From Escherichia coli (GTDB lineage Bacteria > Pseudomonadota > Gammaproteobacteria > Enterobacterales > Enterobacteriaceae), in assembly GCF_003334315.1 (NCBI RefSeq), contig NZ_QOWR01000070.1: DNA of 19,979 nucleotides; one strand, written 5' to 3'. The notes beneath the pieces were generated by a model. The model made no database searches. It was not told where the DNA came from and saw only the letters and a list, made by a program, of their open reading frames with translations. Both the position numbers and the translations under genes were made by a program. Of this stretch, positions 9,284-16,349 are shown piece by piece (positions within the stretch are counted from its first letter, which is position 1; the number at the start of each line of letters is the position of its first letter).

Positions 9284-9458
9284 GACGCCACCGATAACCG
9301 TTATTTATCAGACCAAAGAAACTGGCATCTACTTTAATGCAGATGATTGTGTCAGGGTAATTTATGAACGGTTAAAACTGTGAAAAATCAGTTAGTGATA
9401 AGTAAAAACTATCGCTACGTGAACCGGGTCACACTTTTTACTGATGACGGGAAAGGTT

Positions 9459-10769
9459 ATGGAGTCTTTGAATCAATTTGTTAATTCGCTTGCCCCAAAA
9501 TTATCGCACTGGCGACGTGATTTTCATCACTATGCAGAGTCTGGCTGGGTGGAATTCCGCACTGCCACCCTTGTTGCGGAAGAATTGCACCAGCTCGGCT
9601 ATTCACTGGCGCTGGGTCGCGAAGTAGTTAATGAAAGTAGCCGGATGGGATTACCTGATGAATTCACTCTACAACGCGAATTCGAGCGCGCTCGTCAACA
9701 GGGTGCGCTAGCACAATGGATTGCGGCTTTTGAAGGTGGTTTCACTGGTATCGTCGCCACCCTGGATACCGGTCGCCCCGGTCCGGTGATGGCTTTCCGT
9801 GTCGATATGGACGCGCTGGATCTCAGTGAAGAGCAGGATGTCAGCCATCGCCCCTACCGCGACGGTTTTGCGTCATGTAACGCCGGAATGATGCATGCCT
9901 GTGGTCATGATGGACATACCGCCATTGGGCTTGGGCTGGCGCATACCCTTAAACAGTTCGAGTCCGGACTACATGGCGTCATCAAACTGATTTTTCAGCC
10001 TGCAGAGGAAGGTACGCGTGGCGCGCGGGCGATGGTCGATGCAGGTGTCGTAGATGATGTTGATTATTTTACTGCCGTGCACATTGGCACTGGCGTACCT
10101 GCGGGCACCGTGGTGTGCGGCAGTGATAATTTTATGGCAACCACCAAATTTGACGCGCACTTCACCGGTACCGCCGCTCACGCAGGCGCAAAACCAGAAG
10201 ACGGTCACAATGCCTTGTTGGCGGCAGCACAAGCCACTCTTGCACTGCATGCAATCGCCCCGCACAGCGAAGGAGCTTCCAGAGTAAACGTGGGCGTTAT
10301 GCAGGCAGGAAGCGGTCGTAACGTTGTTCCTGCCTCGGCGTTGCTGAAAGTGGAAACACGCGGGGCCAGCGACGTCATTAATCAATATGTTTTTGACCGT
10401 GCACAACAAGCGATTCAGGGCGCAGCAACCATGTATGGTGTCGGCGTTGAAACTCGTCTGATGGGTGCAGCTACCGCCAGTTCTCCTTCGCCGCAATGGG
10501 TCGCATGGTTGCAAAGTCAGGCGGCTCAGGTCGCGGGGGTCAATCAGGCCATTGAACGTGTTGAAGCGCCAGCGGGTTCCGAAGATGCCACATTAATGAT
10601 GGCCCGCGTGCAGCAACATCAAGGGCAAGCCTCCTACGTGGTGTTTGGCACACAGCTGGCGGCAGGTCATCACAACGAAAAATTCGATTTTGACGAGCAG
10701 GTTCTCGCTATTGCCGTCGAAACGCTGGCGCGCACCGCGCTCAATTTTCCCTGGACGCGAGGTATCTGA
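9459..10769 (+). CDS. abgA: p-Aminobenzoyl-glutamate hydrolase subunit A, M20 peptidase family (436 aa from internal Met)
   Basis: M20/amidohydrolase metal-binding motifs (..MHACGHDGH..); GGAAAGG Shine-Dalgarno before ATG at 9459; first gene of the abgABT cluster. Confidence 0.9.
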   Translation: MESLNQFVNSLAPKLSHWRRDFHHYAESGWVEFRTATLVAEELHQLGYSLALGREVVNESSRMGLPDEFTLQREFERARQQGALAQWIAAFEGGFTGIVATLDTGRPGPVMAFRVDMDALDLSEEQDVSHRPYRDGFASCNAGMMHACGHDGHTAIGLGLAHTLKQFESGLHGVIKLIFQPAEEGTRGARAMVDAGVVDDVDYFTAVHIGTGVPAGTVVCGSDNFMATTKFDAHFTGTAAHAGAKPEDGHNALLAAAQATLALHAIAPHSEGASRVNVGVMQAGSGRNVVPASALLKVETRGASDVINQYVFDRAQQAIQGAATMYGVGVETRLMGAATASSPSPQWVAWLQSQAAQVAGVNQAIERVEAPAGSEDATLMMARVQQHQGQASYVVFGTQLAAGHHNEKFDFDEQVLAIAVETLARTALNFPWTRGI

Positions 10770-12214
10770 TGCAGGAAATCTATCGTTTTATCGACGATGC
10801 GATTGAAGCCGATCGCCAACGTTATACCGATATTGCCGATCAAATCTGGGATCATCCAGAAACACGTTTTGAAGAGTTCTGGTCAGCGGAGCATCTGGCT
10901 TCGGCGCTGGAATCTGCAGGTTTCACCGTTACCCGCAACGTAGGCAATATCCCAAATGCCTTTATTGCTTCGTTTGGTCAAGGCAAACCGGTTATCGCCC
11001 TGCTGGGAGAATATGACGCCCTGGCAGGTTTAAGTCAGCAAGCAGGTTGCGCGCAACCTACATCCGTGACGCCCGGTGAAAATGGTCACGGTTGCGGACA
11101 CAATTTGCTGGGAACCGCCGCCTTTGCCGCTGCAATAGCCGTCAAGAAATGGCTGGAACAATATGGGCAAGGCGGCACGGTGCGCTTTTATGGTTGTCCT
11201 GGCGAAGAAGGCGGCTCGGGTAAAACGTTCATGGTTCGCGAGGGGGTATTTGATGATGTGGATGCGGCACTCACCTGGCACCCGGAAGCCTTTGCCGGTA
11301 TGTTCAATACCCGCACGCTGGCAAACATTCAGGCATCATGGCGCTTTAAAGGGATCGCAGCACATGCCGCGAATTCCCCTCATTTGGGACGCAGCGCCCT
11401 TGATGCCGTAACGTTGATGACCACTGGCACCAACTTCCTCAACGAACATATTATTGAAAAAGCGCGCGTACACTATGCCATCACAAATAGCGGCGGGATC
11501 TCGCCCAACGTGGTCCAGGCGCAGGCAGAAGTGCTTTATCTTATCCGCGCCCCCGAAATGACCGACGTGCAGCATATTTTTGATCGGGTCGCCAAAATCG
11601 CCGAAGGTGCGGCATTGATGACCGAAACCACGGTTGAATGCCGCTTCGACAAAGCCTGTTCCAGTTATCTCCCGAATCGCACCTTAGAAAATGCCATGTA
11701 CCATGCCCTATCCCATTTTGGTACCCCGGAATGGAACTCCGAAGAACTGGCTTTTGCGAAACAAATTCAGGCTACGCTCACCCCCAACGATCGGCAAAAC
11801 AGTCTGAATAATATCGCAGCAACCGGTGGCGAAAACGGCAAGGCTTTTGCACTACGTCATCGTGAAACGGTACTGGCGAATGAGGTCGCTCCATATGCCG
11901 CCACCGATAACGTGCTTGCGGCATCGACTGATGTCGGCGACGTCAGTTGGAAACTGCCTGTTGCCCAGTGTTTCAGCCCCTGTTTTGCCGTCGGTACACC
12001 GCTACATACGTGGCAACTGGTTAGCCAGGGGCGAACATCTATTGCTCATAAAGGAATGCTGCTGGCGGCGAAAACTATGGCAGCAACCACAGTCAATCTC
12101 TTCATTGATTCAGGGCTATTGCAAGAATGCCAACAAGAGCATCAGCAAGTTACGGACACGCAACCGTATCACTGCCCTATCCCGAAAAACGTGACACCGT
12201 CACCTTTAAAATAA
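10769..12214 (+). CDS. abgB: p-Aminobenzoyl-glutamate hydrolase subunit B, M20 peptidase family (481 aa)
   Basis: M20 family motifs (..GHGCGHNLLG..); start overlaps the abgA stop (TGATG), suggesting translational coupling. Confidence 0.9.
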   Translation: MQEIYRFIDDAIEADRQRYTDIADQIWDHPETRFEEFWSAEHLASALESAGFTVTRNVGNIPNAFIASFGQGKPVIALLGEYDALAGLSQQAGCAQPTSVTPGENGHGCGHNLLGTAAFAAAIAVKKWLEQYGQGGTVRFYGCPGEEGGSGKTFMVREGVFDDVDAALTWHPEAFAGMFNTRTLANIQASWRFKGIAAHAANSPHLGRSALDAVTLMTTGTNFLNEHIIEKARVHYAITNSGGISPNVVQAQAEVLYLIRAPEMTDVQHIFDRVAKIAEGAALMTETTVECRFDKACSSYLPNRTLENAMYHALSHFGTPEWNSEELAFAKQIQATLTPNDRQNSLNNIAATGGENGKAFALRHRETVLANEVAPYAATDNVLAASTDVGDVSWKLPVAQCFSPCFAVGTPLHTWQLVSQGRTSIAHKGMLLAAKTMAATTVNLFIDSGLLQECQQEHQQVTDTQPYHCPIPKNVTPSPLK

Positions 12215-12247
12215 CAACAACGCAAACACAACAACCGAGGAATGCCC

Positions 12248-13774
12248 ATGAGTATGTCATCCATACCGTCGTCCTCCCAATCCGGGAAGCTCTATGGCTG
12301 GGTCGAAAGAATTGGTAACAAGGTTCCCCATCCTTTTTTGCTCTTTATCTATTTGATAATCGTACTCATGGTGACGACGGCAATTTTGTCAGCCTTTGGC
12401 GTCAGTGCGAAAAACCCGACCGATGGTACGCCGGTGGTGGTGAAAAACCTGCTCAGTGTGGAAGGATTACACTGGTTTTTACCCAATGTGATTAAAAACT
12501 TTAGCGGTTTTGCTCCACTTGGAGCGATCCTGGCGCTGGTTTTAGGTGCCGGCCTAGCGGAGCGCGTCGGCTTACTGCCAGCGCTAATGGTTAAAATGGC
12601 ATCGCATGTTAATGCCCGCTACGCCAGTTATATGGTGCTGTTTATTGCTTTTTTCAGCCACATTTCTTCCGATGCGGCGTTAGTGATCATGCCACCGATG
12701 GGTGCGCTGATTTTTCTGGCGGTGGGCAGGCATCCAGTTGCAGGTTTACTGGCTGCCATTGCAGGCGTAGGTTGCGGCTTTACGGCTAATTTACTGATTG
12801 TCACAACCGACGTGTTGCTGTCGGGGATCAGCACGGAAGCGGCGGCTGCGTTCAATCCGCAAATGCACGTCAGTGTAATTGATAACTGGTATTTTATGGC
12901 CAGCTCCGTAGTCGTACTGACGATTGTTGGCGGCTTGATAACCGACAAAATCATCGAGCCACGGTTAGGTCAATGGCAGGGAAACAGCGATGAGAAACTG
13001 CAGACATTGACCGAAAGTCAGCGTTTTGGTTTACGCATAGCAGGTGTCGTATCGCTACTTTTTATTGCTGCGATCGCGCTGATGGTGATCCCGGAAAACG
13101 GGATATTGCGCGATCCGATTAATCACACCGTGATGCCATCACCCTTTATTAAAGGTATCGTGCCACTAATCATTCTTTTTTTCTTTGTGGTTTCGCTGGC
13201 TTATGGCATCGCTACCCGCACAATTCGACGTCAGGCGGATTTACCGCATTTAATGATTGAACCGATGAAAGAGATGGCGGGATTTATCGTGATGGTTTTT
13301 CCCCTAGCCCAGTTTGTCGCCATGTTTAACTGGAGCAACATGGGGAAATTCATCGCCGTGGGGCTGACCGATATACTTGAAAGTTCAGGGCTTAGCGGCA
13401 TCCCGGCGTTTGTCGGTCTGGCGTTGCTTTCCTCTTTCTTATGCATGTTTATTGCCAGCGGTTCCGCAATCTGGTCGATTCTGGCCCCCATTTTCGTACC
13501 AATGTTTATGCTACTTGGCTTTCACCCGGCATTTGCGCAAATCCTCTTTCGTATTGCCGACTCATCCGTATTGCCTTTAGCGCCGGTATCTCCTTTTGTT
13601 CCACTGTTTCTTGGATTCCTGCAACGCTACAAACCAGACGCGAAACTGGGTACTTACTATTCGTTAGTCTTGCCCTATCCGCTTATCTTTTTGGTGGTAT
13701 GGCTGCTGATGTTGCTGGCGTGGTATCTTGTTGGTCTGCCGATAGGTCCGGGGATTTACCCACGTTTGTCTTAA
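12248..13774 (+). CDS. abgT: p-Aminobenzoyl-glutamate transporter AbgT (508 aa from Met at 12248)
   Basis: Polytopic membrane protein of the AbgT family; GAGGA Shine-Dalgarno 6 nt before ATG at 12248. Confidence 0.9.
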
Positions 13775-13784
13775 GAGAGAACGG

Positions 13785-14300
13785 ATGCTGAGATTACTTG
13801 AAGAAAAAATTGCCACGCCACTGGGTCCACTGTGGGTGATTTGCGATGAGCAATTTCGCCTGCGGGCGGTTGAATGGGAAGAGTACAGCGAACGCATGGT
13901 GCAGCTGCTGGACATCCATTATCGCAAAGAAGGCTATGAGCGCATTTCTGCCACCAACCCAGGCGGTTTAAGCGACAAGCTTCGTGATTATTTTGCCGGT
14001 AATCTTAGCATTATTGATACGCTTCCCACTGCCACAGGGGGGACGCCATTTCAGCGCGAAGTCTGGAAAACTCTACGCACTATCCCCTGCGGGCAGGTAA
14101 TGCATTACGGCCAACTGGCTGAACAATTGGGCCGCCCTGGCGCGGCGCGTGCCGTTGGTGCGGCAAACGGATCGAATCCCATCAGCATCGTCGTACCTTG
14201 CCATCGGGTTATTGGCCGAAACGGCACCATGACCGGATATGCAGGCGGAGTTCAGCGAAAAGAGTGGTTATTGCGCCACGAAGGTTATCTTTTGCTGTAA
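13785..14300 (+). CDS. ogt: O6-alkylguanine-DNA alkyltransferase Ogt (171 aa)
   Basis: Active-site PCHRV motif ([10 protein letters not shown]); 10 bp downstream of abgT. Confidence 0.92.
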
Positions 14301-14461
14301 ACATTAAACAATTTGTGCCAGCTTGTTCACACTTTTATGTAAAGTTACCCTTAACAACTTAAGGGTTTTCAAATAGATAGACATATATTTACATCTAATA
14401 TCGGAATTCTCTGCTGTTAAGGTTTGCTTAGACTTACTTGCTCCCTAAAAAGATGTTAAAA

Positions 14462-14475
14462 TTGACAAATATCAA
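14462..14475. promoter_or_regulatory. FNR box TTGAC-AAAT-ATCAA in the fnr promoter (autoregulatory site overlapping the transcription start region)
   Basis: Near-perfect FNR consensus palindrome ~20 bp upstream of the fnr start codon; fnr is known to be autoregulated. Confidence 0.7.
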
Positions 14476-14494
14476 TTACGGCTTGAGCAGACCT

Positions 14495-15247
14495 ATGATC
14501 CCGGAAAAGCGAATTATACGGCGCATTCAGTCTGGCGGTTGTGCTATCCATTGCCAGGATTGCAGCATCAGCCAGCTTTGCATCCCGTTCACACTCAACG
14601 AACATGAGCTTGATCAGCTTGATAATATCATTGAGCGGAAGAAGCCTATTCAGAAAGGCCAGACGCTGTTTAAGGCTGGTGATGAACTTAAATCGCTTTA
14701 TGCCATCCGCTCCGGTACGATTAAAAGTTATACCATCACTGAGCAAGGCGACGAGCAAATCACTGGTTTCCATTTAGCAGGCGACCTGGTGGGATTTGAC
14801 GCCATCGGCAGCGGCCATCACCCGAGCTTCGCGCAGGCGCTGGAAACCTCGATGGTATGTGAAATCCCGTTCGAAACGCTGGACGATTTGTCCGGTAAAA
14901 TGCCGAATCTGCGTCAGCAGATGATGCGTCTGATGAGCGGTGAAATCAAAGGCGATCAGGACATGATCCTGCTGTTGTCGAAGAAAAATGCCGAGGAACG
15001 TCTGGCTGCATTCATCTACAACCTGTCCCGTCGTTTTGCCCAACGCGGCTTCTCCCCTCGTGAATTCCGCCTGACGATGACTCGTGGCGATATCGGTAAC
15101 TATCTGGGCCTGACGGTAGAAACCATCAGCCGTCTGCTGGGTCGCTTCCAGAAAAGCGGCATGCTGGCAGTCAAAGGTAAATACATCACCATCGAAAATA
15201 ACGATGCGCTGGCCCAGCTTGCTGGTCATACGCGTAACGTTGCCTGA
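14495..15247 (+). CDS. fnr: Fumarate/nitrate reduction global regulator FNR (250 aa from Met at 14495)
   Basis: N-terminal Cys cluster for the [4Fe-4S] centre (..[16 protein letters not shown]..), CRP-family fold, C-terminal helix-turn-helix (..[19 protein letters not shown]..). Confidence 0.95.
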
Positions 15248-15398: not shown

Positions 15399-16349
15399 AT
15401 GGCTATGTATCAGAACATGCTCGTTGTTATCGATCCTAACCAGGACGACCAACCAGCATTGCGGCGAGCTGTTTATTTACATCAACGGATTGGTGGCAAA
15501 ATTAAAGCCTTTTTGCCGATCTATGACTTCTCATACGAAATGACCACCCTGCTCTCCCCGGACGAACGTACCGCTATGCGTCAGGGCGTCATCAGCCAGC
15601 GTACAGCCTGGATCCACGAGCAGGCAAAATATTATCTCAATGCTGGCGTTCCCATTGAAATTAAAGTGGTCTGGCATAACCGTCCTTTCGAAGCCATCAT
15701 TCAGGAAGTGATCAGCGGCGGACACGATTTGGTGCTAAAAATGGCGCACCAACATGACCGTCTGGAAGCGGTGATTTTTACGCCAACGGACTGGCATCTG
15801 TTACGCAAATGCCCAAGCCCGGTGTGGATGGTGAAAGACCAGCCGTGGCCGGAAGGAGGCAAGGCGCTGGTGGCGGTGAATCTCGCCAGTGAAGAGCCGT
15901 ATCATAATGCGCTCAATGAAAAACTGGTCAAAGAGACGATCGAACTGGCAGAACAAGTCAACCATACCGAAGTTCATCTGGTTGGCGCTTATCCGGTAAC
16001 GCCAATTAATATCGCGATTGAACTGCCGGAATTTGACCCGAGCGTTTATAACGATGCCATTCGTGGGCAACATTTGCTGGCAATGAAAGCCCTGCGGCAG
16101 AAATTCGGCATTAATGAAAACATGACGCACGTAGAAAAAGGTCTGCCAGAAGAGGTGATTCCTGATTTGGCGGAGCACTTACAGGCGGGGATTGTGGTTC
16201 TGGGCACGGTAGGACGCACCGGTATTTCAGCAGCATTCCTCGGCAACACGGCGGAACAGGTGATTGATCATCTTCGCTGCGACCTGCTGGTCATTAAACC
16301 TGACCAGTATCAGACACCCGTTGAACTGGATGACGAAGAAGACGATTAA
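15399..16349 (+). CDS. uspE: Tandem-domain universal stress protein UspE (316 aa from Met at 15399)
   Basis: Two Usp domains; N-terminus [25 protein letters not shown].. matches K-12 UspE from memory. Confidence 0.9.

Follow-up and report, generated by a model that had tools for sequence, protein, structure and literature searches.

Does the DNA repair gene ogt of Escherichia coli depend on the promoter of the abg genes that precede it, or is it transcribed on its own account? The question is raised by the window analyzed here, a stretch of 19,979 nucleotides from contig NZ_QOWR01000070.1 (assembly GCF_003334315.1), whose 100% match to several complete E. coli chromosomes identifies it as chromosomal. 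The first-pass annotation had read abgA-abgB-abgT-ogt as a single operon controlled by AbgR, linking repair of DNA alkylation to uptake and hydrolysis of p-aminobenzoyl-glutamate.

Gene order and junctions

The gene limits are those of the RefSeq annotation converted to window coordinates, and are the same as in the first-pass annotation.

8375..9283, minus strand: abgR, LysR-family regulator divergent from abgA (annotation; NCBIfam PRK09791)
9284..9458, no strand: abgR-abgA divergent control region, 175 bp (sequence)
9459..10769, plus strand: abgA (RefSeq annotation; amidohydrolase subfamily match)
10769..12214, plus strand: abgB, hydrolase subunit B (RefSeq annotation; amidohydrolase subfamily match)
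12248..13774, plus strand: abgT, p-aminobenzoyl-glutamate transporter (RefSeq annotation; NCBIfam equivalog)
13785..14300, plus strand: ogt, O6-alkylguanine-DNA alkyltransferase (RefSeq annotation; NCBIfam PRK10286)
14347..14369, plus strand: weak candidate ogt terminator, 8-bp hairpin ACCCTTAA-CAAC-TTAAGGGT (stem kept in the centroid fold)

AbgR scores 631.8 bits with the PRK09791 equivalog (cutoff 336), AbgT 1093.7 bits with its own equivalog (cutoff 864), and Ogt 386.6 bits with PRK10286 (cutoff 192), residues 1-171 (full length) being covered. Ogt also contains the active-site cysteine motif PCHR, in IVVPCHRV.

Direct reading gave exactly the junction figures already reported for the locus, namely a 1-nt overlap of abgA and abgB (TGATG, with TGA at 10767-10769 and ATG at 10769-10771), 33 bp between abgB and abgT (TAA ending at 12214, ATG at 12248) and 10 bp between abgT and ogt (TAA ending at 13774, ATG at 13785). 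A second in-frame ATG of abgT, at 12242, is the start of the mechanical ORF; the start at 12248 is favoured because of a GAGGA Shine-Dalgarno sequence at 12238-12242. The abgB-abgT gap is 36 bp in K-12 MG1655, a strain-to-strain difference of 3 bp. Same-strand gaps this short are typical within one operon, and the abg-ogt spacing is therefore not a chance pattern. The absence of a hairpin between abgT and ogt was also borne out: the terminator scan found no terminator-like site on the plus strand from 12640 to 14600, and the predicted fold of the 95 nt that begin at the ogt start site is no more stable than that of shuffled sequence (z = +1.27). The candidate hairpin behind ogt, upstream of the fnr promoter, ends in just three T (14367-14369), below the T-run threshold of the scan.

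Short same-strand gaps and the lack of a terminator favour the simplest reading, in which ogt would be mainly the fourth cistron of an AbgR-controlled abgABT-ogt mRNA and repair would be co-regulated with p-aminobenzoyl-glutamate use. On the other hand, promoters can sit in upstream coding sequence, and for this reason a 10-bp gap without a hairpin is no proof that a gene depends on the upstream promoter.

The ogt promoter inside abgT

Squire et al. reportedly characterised the ogt promoter of E. coli K-12 in 2009 (Biochem J 420:249). It is described as NarL-dependent and Fis-repressed, with an extended -10 and a start 49 nt upstream of the ATG (Ruanto et al. 2020, PMC7419079). Codon mapping places it in the last ~46 codons of abgT.

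13651..13666, plus strand: NarL I 7-2-7 site TACTTAC-TA-TTCGTTA, centre -77.5 (published ogt102 mutations)
13684..13699, plus strand: NarL II 7-2-7 site TATCTTT-TT-GGTGGTA, centre -44.5 (published ogt104 mutations)
13700..13705, plus strand: -35 element TGGCTG (p35T and p34T primers, which place -35 and -34 at g13701 and g13702)
13721..13729, plus strand: extended -10 (TG) and -10 hexamer TATCTT at 13724-13729 (published 5'-TATCTT-3')
13736..13784, plus strand: transcription start at 13736 and 49-nt 5' UTR (start-site sequencing; published mutation positions)

The ogt102 mutations (C at -83, T at -72) map to c13653 and t13664, and the ogt101 primer also matches; the ogt104 mutations (T at -50, G at -39) map to t13686 and g13697, and p11C in the -10 maps to a13725. 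A single register, with +1 at 13736, accommodates these five published positions (-83, -72, -50, -39, -11) together with the -35 primers and the -10 hexamer, and the spacing from -35 to -10 is 18 bp, as in the published promoter. The published Fis site overlaps NarL I (PMC7419079). In a genome-wide K-12 start-site map, ogt is represented by 28 reads with a 49-nt 5' UTR and a promoter string that ends in ...TATCTTGTCGGTC. The start lies in abgT codon 497, 39 nt before the abgT stop; the 5' UTR is made up of the final 13 codons of abgT and the 10-bp gap, and the extended -10 and -10 coincide with codons W492-Y493-L494. Between -110 and +49 the window differs from K-12 at three positions (-55, -4 and +18), all outside promoter elements, with no difference from -3 to +17 or in any element; its G at -55 is the variant shown for 55989 and BL21 (PMC7419079). 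Altogether, the window has the same elements and presumably the same start site as K-12, with every published mutated base at its expected position and no functional difference between the two. Neither the text nor the supplement of the promoter paper contains the string 'abg' (0 occurrences), and the location inside abgT is not mentioned there (PMC7419079).

A generic sigma-70 scan missed this promoter because its -35 is poor and it is activator-dependent, and absence from that scan is thus not evidence against it. When up to 3 mismatches were allowed, the strict NarL pattern TACYYMTNNAKRRGTA matched 13 times against 10.3 expected, never at the real sites, which each depart from the strict consensus at more than 3 positions. 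As the native NarL sites are too degenerate for a pattern scan, they were mapped from the published mutations.

A search for an internal ogt promoter in the abgT 3' end, as the first-pass annotation had suggested, thus finds one, NarL-activated and starting at 13736. That annotation had also held that a start mapped inside abgT, together with no read-through transcripts, would speak against its reading; the first of these two is what the start-site evidence contains. The dependence of ogt on an AbgR-controlled upstream promoter has to be abandoned, since ogt has its own NarL-dependent promoter. Moreover, in K-12 a 326-bp fragment (-269 to +51) is sufficient for nitrate- and NarL-dependent expression (PMC7419079). 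The mapped start already largely refutes the view of ogt as mainly a fourth cistron, which we regard as very improbable.

We propose instead, with a probability of roughly 0.8, that ogt is separately promoted, a sigma-70 promoter being written into the end of abgT, and that read-through from abg is probably a minor extra. In the presence of nitrate, NarL dimers at -77.5 and -44.5 would recruit RNA polymerase to the ogt promoter, Fis would compete with NarL at the upstream site, and transcription would start at 13736 to give an ogt mRNA with a 49-nt leader. When the weak, conditional abg promoter fires, the long transcript would probably carry ogt too. The 10-bp gap would exist because the ogt promoter sits in coding sequence, as a by-product and not out of any need for the abg promoter.

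Distribution of abg and conservation of the promoter

Among 5426 complete E. coli genomes, ogt with its promoter is present in 5402 and the abgT body in 4226, and about 1,176 of the 5,402 have ogt without abgT. These genomes (~22%) have no abgA, abgB or abgT body, and ogt and its promoter are kept.

8589..13625, no strand: 5,037-bp segment missing from ~22% of E. coli (identical junction in four E. coli loci)
13626..13774, plus strand: abgT 3' stub of abg-less E. coli, 149 bp (alignment)

The missing segment comprises the 5' part of abgR, abgA, abgB and abgT codons 1-459. There is one junction, 8588/13626, and it leaves the promoter from -110 onward; the annotation lists the stub, which spans from -110 to the abgT stop, as a pseudogene, a partial 'AbgT family transporter'. 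The shared junction represents one event, and retention of the promoter could be luck.

A similar picture is obtained across Enterobacteriaceae. The smrA..ogt-fnr-uspE backbone is universal among 80 species, and ogt adjoins fnr in all sampled loci. The conserved neighbourhood expected of a single abgA-abgB-abgT-ogt operon was not found: abg lies upstream of ogt in 28 of the 80 species loci (about a third; 25 tight and 3 loose) and is missing from 52. The abgR-abgABT genes are a variable cassette and smrA…ogt-fnr-uspE a conserved backbone. Judged from gene content, the comparison argues against the functional link between abg and ogt that had been drawn, ogt being kept without abg in ~22% of E. 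coli and in most sampled Enterobacteriaceae; the same retention weighs against ogt as a fourth cistron. In favour of the latter, the tight abgT-ogt junction recurs in six further genera (Enterobacter, Leclercia, Lelliottia, Buttiauxella, Pluralibacter and Franconibacter), a conservation that could also mean selection for co-transcription. In the loose loci, from Klebsiella and Raoultella, the abgT-ogt spacer is 179-749 bp, and the 749-bp spacer of Raoultella planticola contains small mechanical ORFs only. All 26 tight and all 3 loose loci have the motif TGnTAnnnT 30-90 nt before the ogt start codon, as do 44 of 56 abg-less loci; the rate in shuffled sequences is 7%, and five E. coli comparison loci are among those counted. 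Published experiments or tool results thus show where the ogt promoter lies and which elements it has, that it is conserved, and that abg is dispensable.

We also asked what the promoter does to abgT. In an alignment of 23 tight-junction loci, 19 of 365 degenerate, amino-acid-conserved abgT columns are codon-invariant. Codons 493-494, which form the -10, are invariantly TAT-CTT, apart from one TAT-TTT, and they read TAC-CTG, TAC-TGG or TAC-CTC in the loose loci; they are the sole invariant abgT codons that differ in all three spacer species (179-749 bp). As the loose loci come from one clade (Klebsiella/Raoultella), this contrast amounts in effect to one evolutionary comparison. The signal does not extend beyond the -10 except, more weakly, to the NarL II and -35 codons. 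A broad synonymous constraint over the abgT end was considered and dropped: synonymous diversity is 0.376 in the last 50 codons and 0.400 in the rest of the gene, so that this end is not clearly more conserved.

One would then wonder whether the abgT end is a dual-use sequence shaped by the ogt promoter and, more speculatively, whether RpoS- and CRP-dependent abg read-through is a selected second ogt input; we consider this combined reading rather unlikely. If the dual-use part were true, codons W492-Y493-L494, and partly 478-485, would be fixed at synonymous sites by the ogt promoter, and every loss of the abg cassette would have to leave an abgT stub, a 'promoter fossil', since the promoter lies in that end. 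Such a stub is clear in E. coli and E. albertii, and a decayed form is seen in Salmonella, Citrobacter and Klebsiella. In the literature examined, we found no statement of the codon constraint at 493-494 or of the abgT stub serving as ogt promoter in ~22% of E. coli.

Read-through from abg and comparison with known systems

As there is no terminator and abgT is translated to 10 nt before the ogt start codon, an RNA polymerase that set out at the abg promoter should continue into ogt. Such read-through, we infer, exists and contributes little, and with an internal promoter the locus would formally be a complex operon. A contrary hypothesis is that no abg transcript reaches ogt, the abg promoter being silent or the transcript being processed or terminated inside abgT, and that ogt is monocistronic. 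The single abgA-assigned start in the start-site map, 622 nt upstream, has 3 reads against the 28 of ogt, and a promoter scan of the abgR-abgA control region gave no consensus-like sigma-70 site on the plus strand. Wild-type K-12 is also said, by Hussein et al. in 1998, to be unable to use p-aminobenzoyl-glutamate without up-mutations. However, no terminator-like structure was found, translation of abgT almost to ogt should exclude Rho, given established Rho biology, and published expression studies report clear induction of abgABT in stationary phase and by CRP. We thus hold complete insulation to be unlikely. A search for inverted repeats in the abgR-abgA intergenic region returned none at seed 6.

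In the EDL933 microarray paper (2009), abgA, abgB and abgT are 24- to 41-fold RpoS-dependent and the remaining operon member is below the criterion, ogt itself being unnamed there; 'abgABT*' denotes the incomplete listing of a 'known operon'. The asterisk speaks for ogt as a fourth cistron, and the strong RpoS dependence of abgABT, with the rest of the operon not qualifying, against it. The mark fits the abgABT-ogt unit that EcoCyc and RegulonDB presumably list. Concerning abgT-ogt read-through, SMRT-Cappable-seq, 3'-end mapping, OperonSEQer and the EDL933 RpoS supplements never mention ogt or abgT, and literature text searches on the two genes together, or on the string 'abgT-ogt', gave no relevant match.

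Another hypothesis lies in read-through that depends on RpoS, CRP and AbgR and is adaptive, as an additional source of Ogt for starved or stationary-phase cells beside nitrate induction. Endogenous alkylation damage derived from nitrosation is important in non-growing cells, read-through is physically possible, and abgABT depends on RpoS and CRP; if the hypothesis were true, abg-driven transcription would supply Ogt to starving cells. Yet 22% of E. coli and many genera have lost abg and kept ogt, Klebsiella and Raoultella have the long spacer and a separate promoter between the genes, and ogt is not reported as RpoS-dependent in the EDL933 paper, which leaves it unnamed. A selected second input seems to us quite improbable.

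We therefore return to a separately promoted ogt. From the operon reading, co-orientation, short gaps and the lack of a terminator stand, and the tie of ogt to the AbgR-controlled abg promoter falls. Neither the operon-like spacing nor the NarL-dependent promoter within abgT is new, and a known ogt promoter inside the abgT end makes the tight arrangement ordinary and largely explained. Before an operon call from a genome scan is accepted, start-site maps and presence/absence variation should be consulted, and the locus is a modest example of an embedded promoter that constrains both the gene next to it and what gene loss leaves behind.

Compared with the published abg region (Hussein 1998; Carter 2007; Green 2010, cited in PMC5082436), the window has the same divergent abgR and the same proteins. 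In the portions of the abg literature considered here, including PMC5082436, the 'apparent operon' consists of abgA, abgB and abgT, ogt being left out, unlike in the abgA-abgB-abgT-ogt reading. A parallel can also be drawn with the complex operons with internal promoters of EcoCyc and RegulonDB, with which the locus shares co-orientation, short gaps, the lack of a terminator and a promoter that serves the distal gene from the 3' end of the preceding one. It differs from them in that ogt is functionally unrelated to abgABT and evolutionarily separable from it, and in that co-transcription is here a probable rather than an observed feature.

Gene order and the abgT-ogt junction

Several complete E. 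coli chromosomes match the 6-kb stretch around the abg genes and ogt at 100% identity; used as a query, the stretch gives some match in 5406 of the 5426 complete E. coli genomes. RefSeq annotation transferred to the window places the genes as follows.

Genes of the abg-ogt region (window coordinates, strand)
8375-9283, minus strand, abgR
9459-10769, plus strand, abgA
10769-12214, plus strand, abgB
12248-13774, plus strand, abgT
13785-14300, plus strand, ogt
14495-15247, plus strand, fnr
15399-16349, plus strand, uspE

The identities of AbgT, Ogt and AbgR were confirmed by NCBIfam equivalog models, those of AbgA and AbgB by a match to the amidohydrolase subfamily. Reading of the sequence showed that the junction distances of the first-pass annotation are exact: abgA and abgB overlap by 1 nt (TGATG, 10767-10771), 33 bp separate the abgB TAA, which ends at 12214, from the abgT ATG at 12248, and the abgT TAA ends at 13774, leaving 10 bp before the ogt ATG at 13785. 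The abgB-abgT spacer is 33 bp long in the window (12215-12247) versus 36 bp in K-12 MG1655 (5775-5810 of that locus), and the alignments of many genomes with the 6-kb query display a 3-bp length difference.

Several further features were observed around these genes. The small RNA FnrS lies at 4778-4895 on the minus strand between zntB and ynaL/dbpA (Rfam RF01796, 134.8 bits), and McaS/IsrA at 8273-8368 on the plus strand between smrA and the 3' end of abgR (RF00115, 118.4 bits). A palindrome, ATAAC-C-GTTAT, shorter than the seed length of the repeat finder and read by eye, is found in the abgR-abgA divergent region at 9294-9304, 10 nt before the start codon of abgR; it is a plausible candidate for a LysR-type (AbgR) binding box. 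The start-site table of Kim et al. (2012) lists no start in the abgR-abgA intergenic region. It assigns to abgA a start with only 3 reads, 622 nt upstream of the ATG, which would thus be inside and antisense to abgR, at about 8837 on the plus strand.

We then considered transcription across the junction. As claimed earlier, no hairpin separates abgT from ogt: a terminator scan of the plus strand from 12640 to 14600 found no terminator-like hairpin, and the RNA 13736-13830 folds no better than shuffled sequences. Translating ribosomes prevent Rho loading; as translation of abgT ends only 10 nt before ogt, Rho should not be able to load here. With no terminator either, a polymerase coming from the abg promoter would be unobstructed, and read-through into ogt is likely possible, judging from the sequence. 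A polymerase would next meet a weak hairpin 3' of ogt, the only one there (14347-14366 on the plus strand, an 8-bp stem followed by only three T, 14367-14369); as a weak terminator candidate, it may let some ogt transcripts run on towards fnr. For fnr, a separate start has been mapped 26 nt before the ATG.

Our literature search returned no direct transcript data on abg-to-ogt read-through. The abg genes are listed as CRP-activated, and a 2009 microarray paper reports them as 24- to 41-fold RpoS-dependent in stationary-phase EDL933. The table of that paper carries an entry 'abgABT*', whose footnote states that the known operon has other genes, which missed the RpoS criterion. The database behind this footnote presumably included a further gene in the abgABT operon. 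We take this gene to be ogt, as in EcoCyc/RegulonDB. We thus infer, indirectly, that ogt did not follow the RpoS dependence of abgABT in EDL933, the paper itself not naming ogt.

The ogt promoter inside abgT

The promoter of ogt has been characterized on a fragment from -269 to +51, which is induced by nitrate through NarL (Squire et al. 2009; Ruanto et al. 2020). According to these studies, expression requires a pair of NarL 7-2-7 sites with centres at -77.5 and -44.5, Fis acts as a repressor through a site that overlaps the upstream one of the two, and the -10 hexamer is TATCTT with an extended -10. We located this promoter in the window from the published mutation positions and the supplementary primer sequences.

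Published positions and elements of the ogt promoter (window coordinates)
c13653, published C at -83 (mutation)
t13664, published T at -72 (mutation)
t13686, published T at -50 (mutation)
g13697, published G at -39 (mutation)
a13725, published A at -11 (mutation)
g13701 and g13702, published -35 and -34 (primers)
13651-13666, NarL I, TACTTACTATTCGTTA
13684-13699, NarL II, TATCTTTTTGGTGGTA
13700-13705, -35 element, TGGCTG
13721-13729, extended -10 and -10, TGgTATCTT

All mapped positions fit one register, with +1 at 13736; in K-12 MG1655 the ogt start corresponds to 1,400,285 of NC_000913.3, minus strand. The independent genome-wide map of Kim et al. (2012) gives a single ogt start (28 reads, 49-nt 5' UTR), with an upstream string ending ...GGCGTGGTATCTTGTCGGTC; since 13785 - 13736 = 49, both sources designate the same base. 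The complete promoter is therefore contained within abgT, in codons 468-497 of 508, and transcription starts 39 nt ahead of the end of the abgT stop codon. A mapped ogt start inside abgT, part of what the first-pass annotation had named as evidence against its own proposal, was thus already in the literature. Between -110 and +49, the window differs from K-12 by three substitutions (-55, -4 and +18), none of them in a promoter element; the G at -55 is the variant that Ruanto et al. (2020) show for strains 55989 and BL21.

The proposal that ogt is part of the abg operon hence stands only in part: the operon-like arrangement and the lack of a terminator speak for it, but ogt possesses its own NarL/Fis promoter within abgT.

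Loss of the abg genes within E. coli

In a spread listing of the matches to the 6-kb query, many genomes match only from about 13626 onward. In three of these, ogt-fnr-uspE is intact, abgA, abgB and most of abgT are gone, and ogt is preceded by a pseudogene of about 132-144 bp (annotated as a partial AbgT-family transporter) and a degenerate abgR remnant. BLAST revealed an identical junction in four abg-less E. coli loci (L003-L006), where 8588 is joined to 13626 by a 5,037-bp deletion, and a similar one in E. albertii (L007, about 8606/13647). A junction shared in this way points to a single old deletion allele that spread or was maintained. The abgT stub plus ogt (13629-14300) is present in 5402 of the 5426 complete genomes versus 4226 for the abgT body (12248-13600), so that about 1,176 genomes (22%) keep ogt and its promoter without the abg operon. 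The segment 8589-13625 is accordingly polymorphic, the 5' part of abgR, abgA, abgB and abgT codons 1-459 being gone in these genomes.

At its 5' end the stub starts at position -110 of the ogt promoter, so that 25 bp precede NarL I. In some abg-less strains, such as JJ1887, the remainder of the promoter is intact. Others, of the CFT073/BCE049 type, carry a further 12-bp deletion between the NarL sites (window 13672-13683; about 5040-5060 in locus L004 and about 5000-5020 in locus L005), which brings NarL I about 12 bp nearer the start site and changes the first base of NarL II. This deletion has already been described for CFT073, APEC O1 and E2348/69, with no mention of abg loss (Ruanto et al. 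2020, Fig. S4).

Other variations were observed in this region. The flank 8167-8588 of B2-type abg-less strains shares only 80-84% identity with the window, a value far under the usual E. coli level. Strains of the JJ1887/BCE049/E69 type carry a cluster of about 3.6 kb between smrA and McaS (window 8055/8167; 3222-6614 in L003, 1221-4613 in L004, about 2840-6428 in L006), encoding an AraC-family regulator, an HlyD-family protein and an efflux permease of the DHA2 MFS type. The annotation of L003 and L004 marks the permease as frameshifted; L006 is unannotated. Some strains carry insertion sequences: an IS5 lies in the abg region of one K-12 isolate. In an O157-like strain, abgT is split by IS1203, so that any read-through from abg to ogt would be interrupted there.

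Neighbourhood and codon constraint across Enterobacteriaceae

We scanned one genome per species with Ogt (80 loci), locating neighbouring proteins by tblastn. The order smrA (minus strand) … ogt-fnr-uspE is found essentially everywhere, while abgR-abgABT lies between smrA and ogt in only 28 loci. The abgT-ogt junction is tight in 25 of the 28 (gap of 9-16 bp in the 22 measured), in genera including Enterobacter, Leclercia, Lelliottia, Buttiauxella, Pluralibacter and Franconibacter. In the three others, a full-length abgT lies 179-749 bp from ogt (spacers: Klebsiella indica, 6822-7000 of L033; Raoultella planticola, 6252-7000 of L034; K. michiganensis, 6547-7000 of L037). No abg genes are present in the remaining 52 loci, among them those of Salmonella, Citrobacter, Kluyvera, Kosakonia and E. 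albertii. That ogt so often occurs cleanly separated from abg, in E. coli as well as in the family at large, contradicts the suggestion that alkylation repair is functionally linked to p-aminobenzoyl-glutamate use.

Between 30 and 90 nt ahead of the ogt ATG, the extended -10 motif TGnTAnnnT is present in all 26 tight and all 3 loose loci and in 44 of 56 abg-less loci (counts taking in five E. coli comparison loci), versus 7% of shuffles. Since most loci have it, ogt appears to be served by a promoter of its own across the family, regardless of the genes upstream.

Finally, we aligned the abgT codons of 23 tight-junction loci. Among 365 degenerate columns with a conserved amino acid, only 19 are codon-invariant. 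Two of them lie side by side, codons 493 and 494 (TAT-CTT), and make up the -10 hexamer; leucine has five codons other than CTT. These two are also the only invariant columns that differ in all three loose-junction species (TAC with CTG, TGG or CTC), where the hexamer copy in abgT is destroyed and a separate extended -10 lies in the spacer. As these species form a single clade, this is one evolutionary contrast and not three; their junctions may have arisen when abg was acquired anew upstream of a stub that had decayed. Synonymous diversity is below average in codons 478-485 (NarL II and -35). Over the last 50 abgT codons as a whole it is not clearly lower than in the rest of the gene (0.376 vs 0.400).

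Altogether, ogt is an independent transcription unit under NarL and Fis control, and its promoter happens to lie within abgT. Our literature search found no prior statement of the constraint on the -10 codons or of the abgT stub as ogt promoter. The main points on the abg-ogt arrangement and the ogt promoter are already known, and to these the present analysis makes two small additions, the synonymous constraint on the -10 codons and the retention of the abgT stub as ogt promoter after abg loss.
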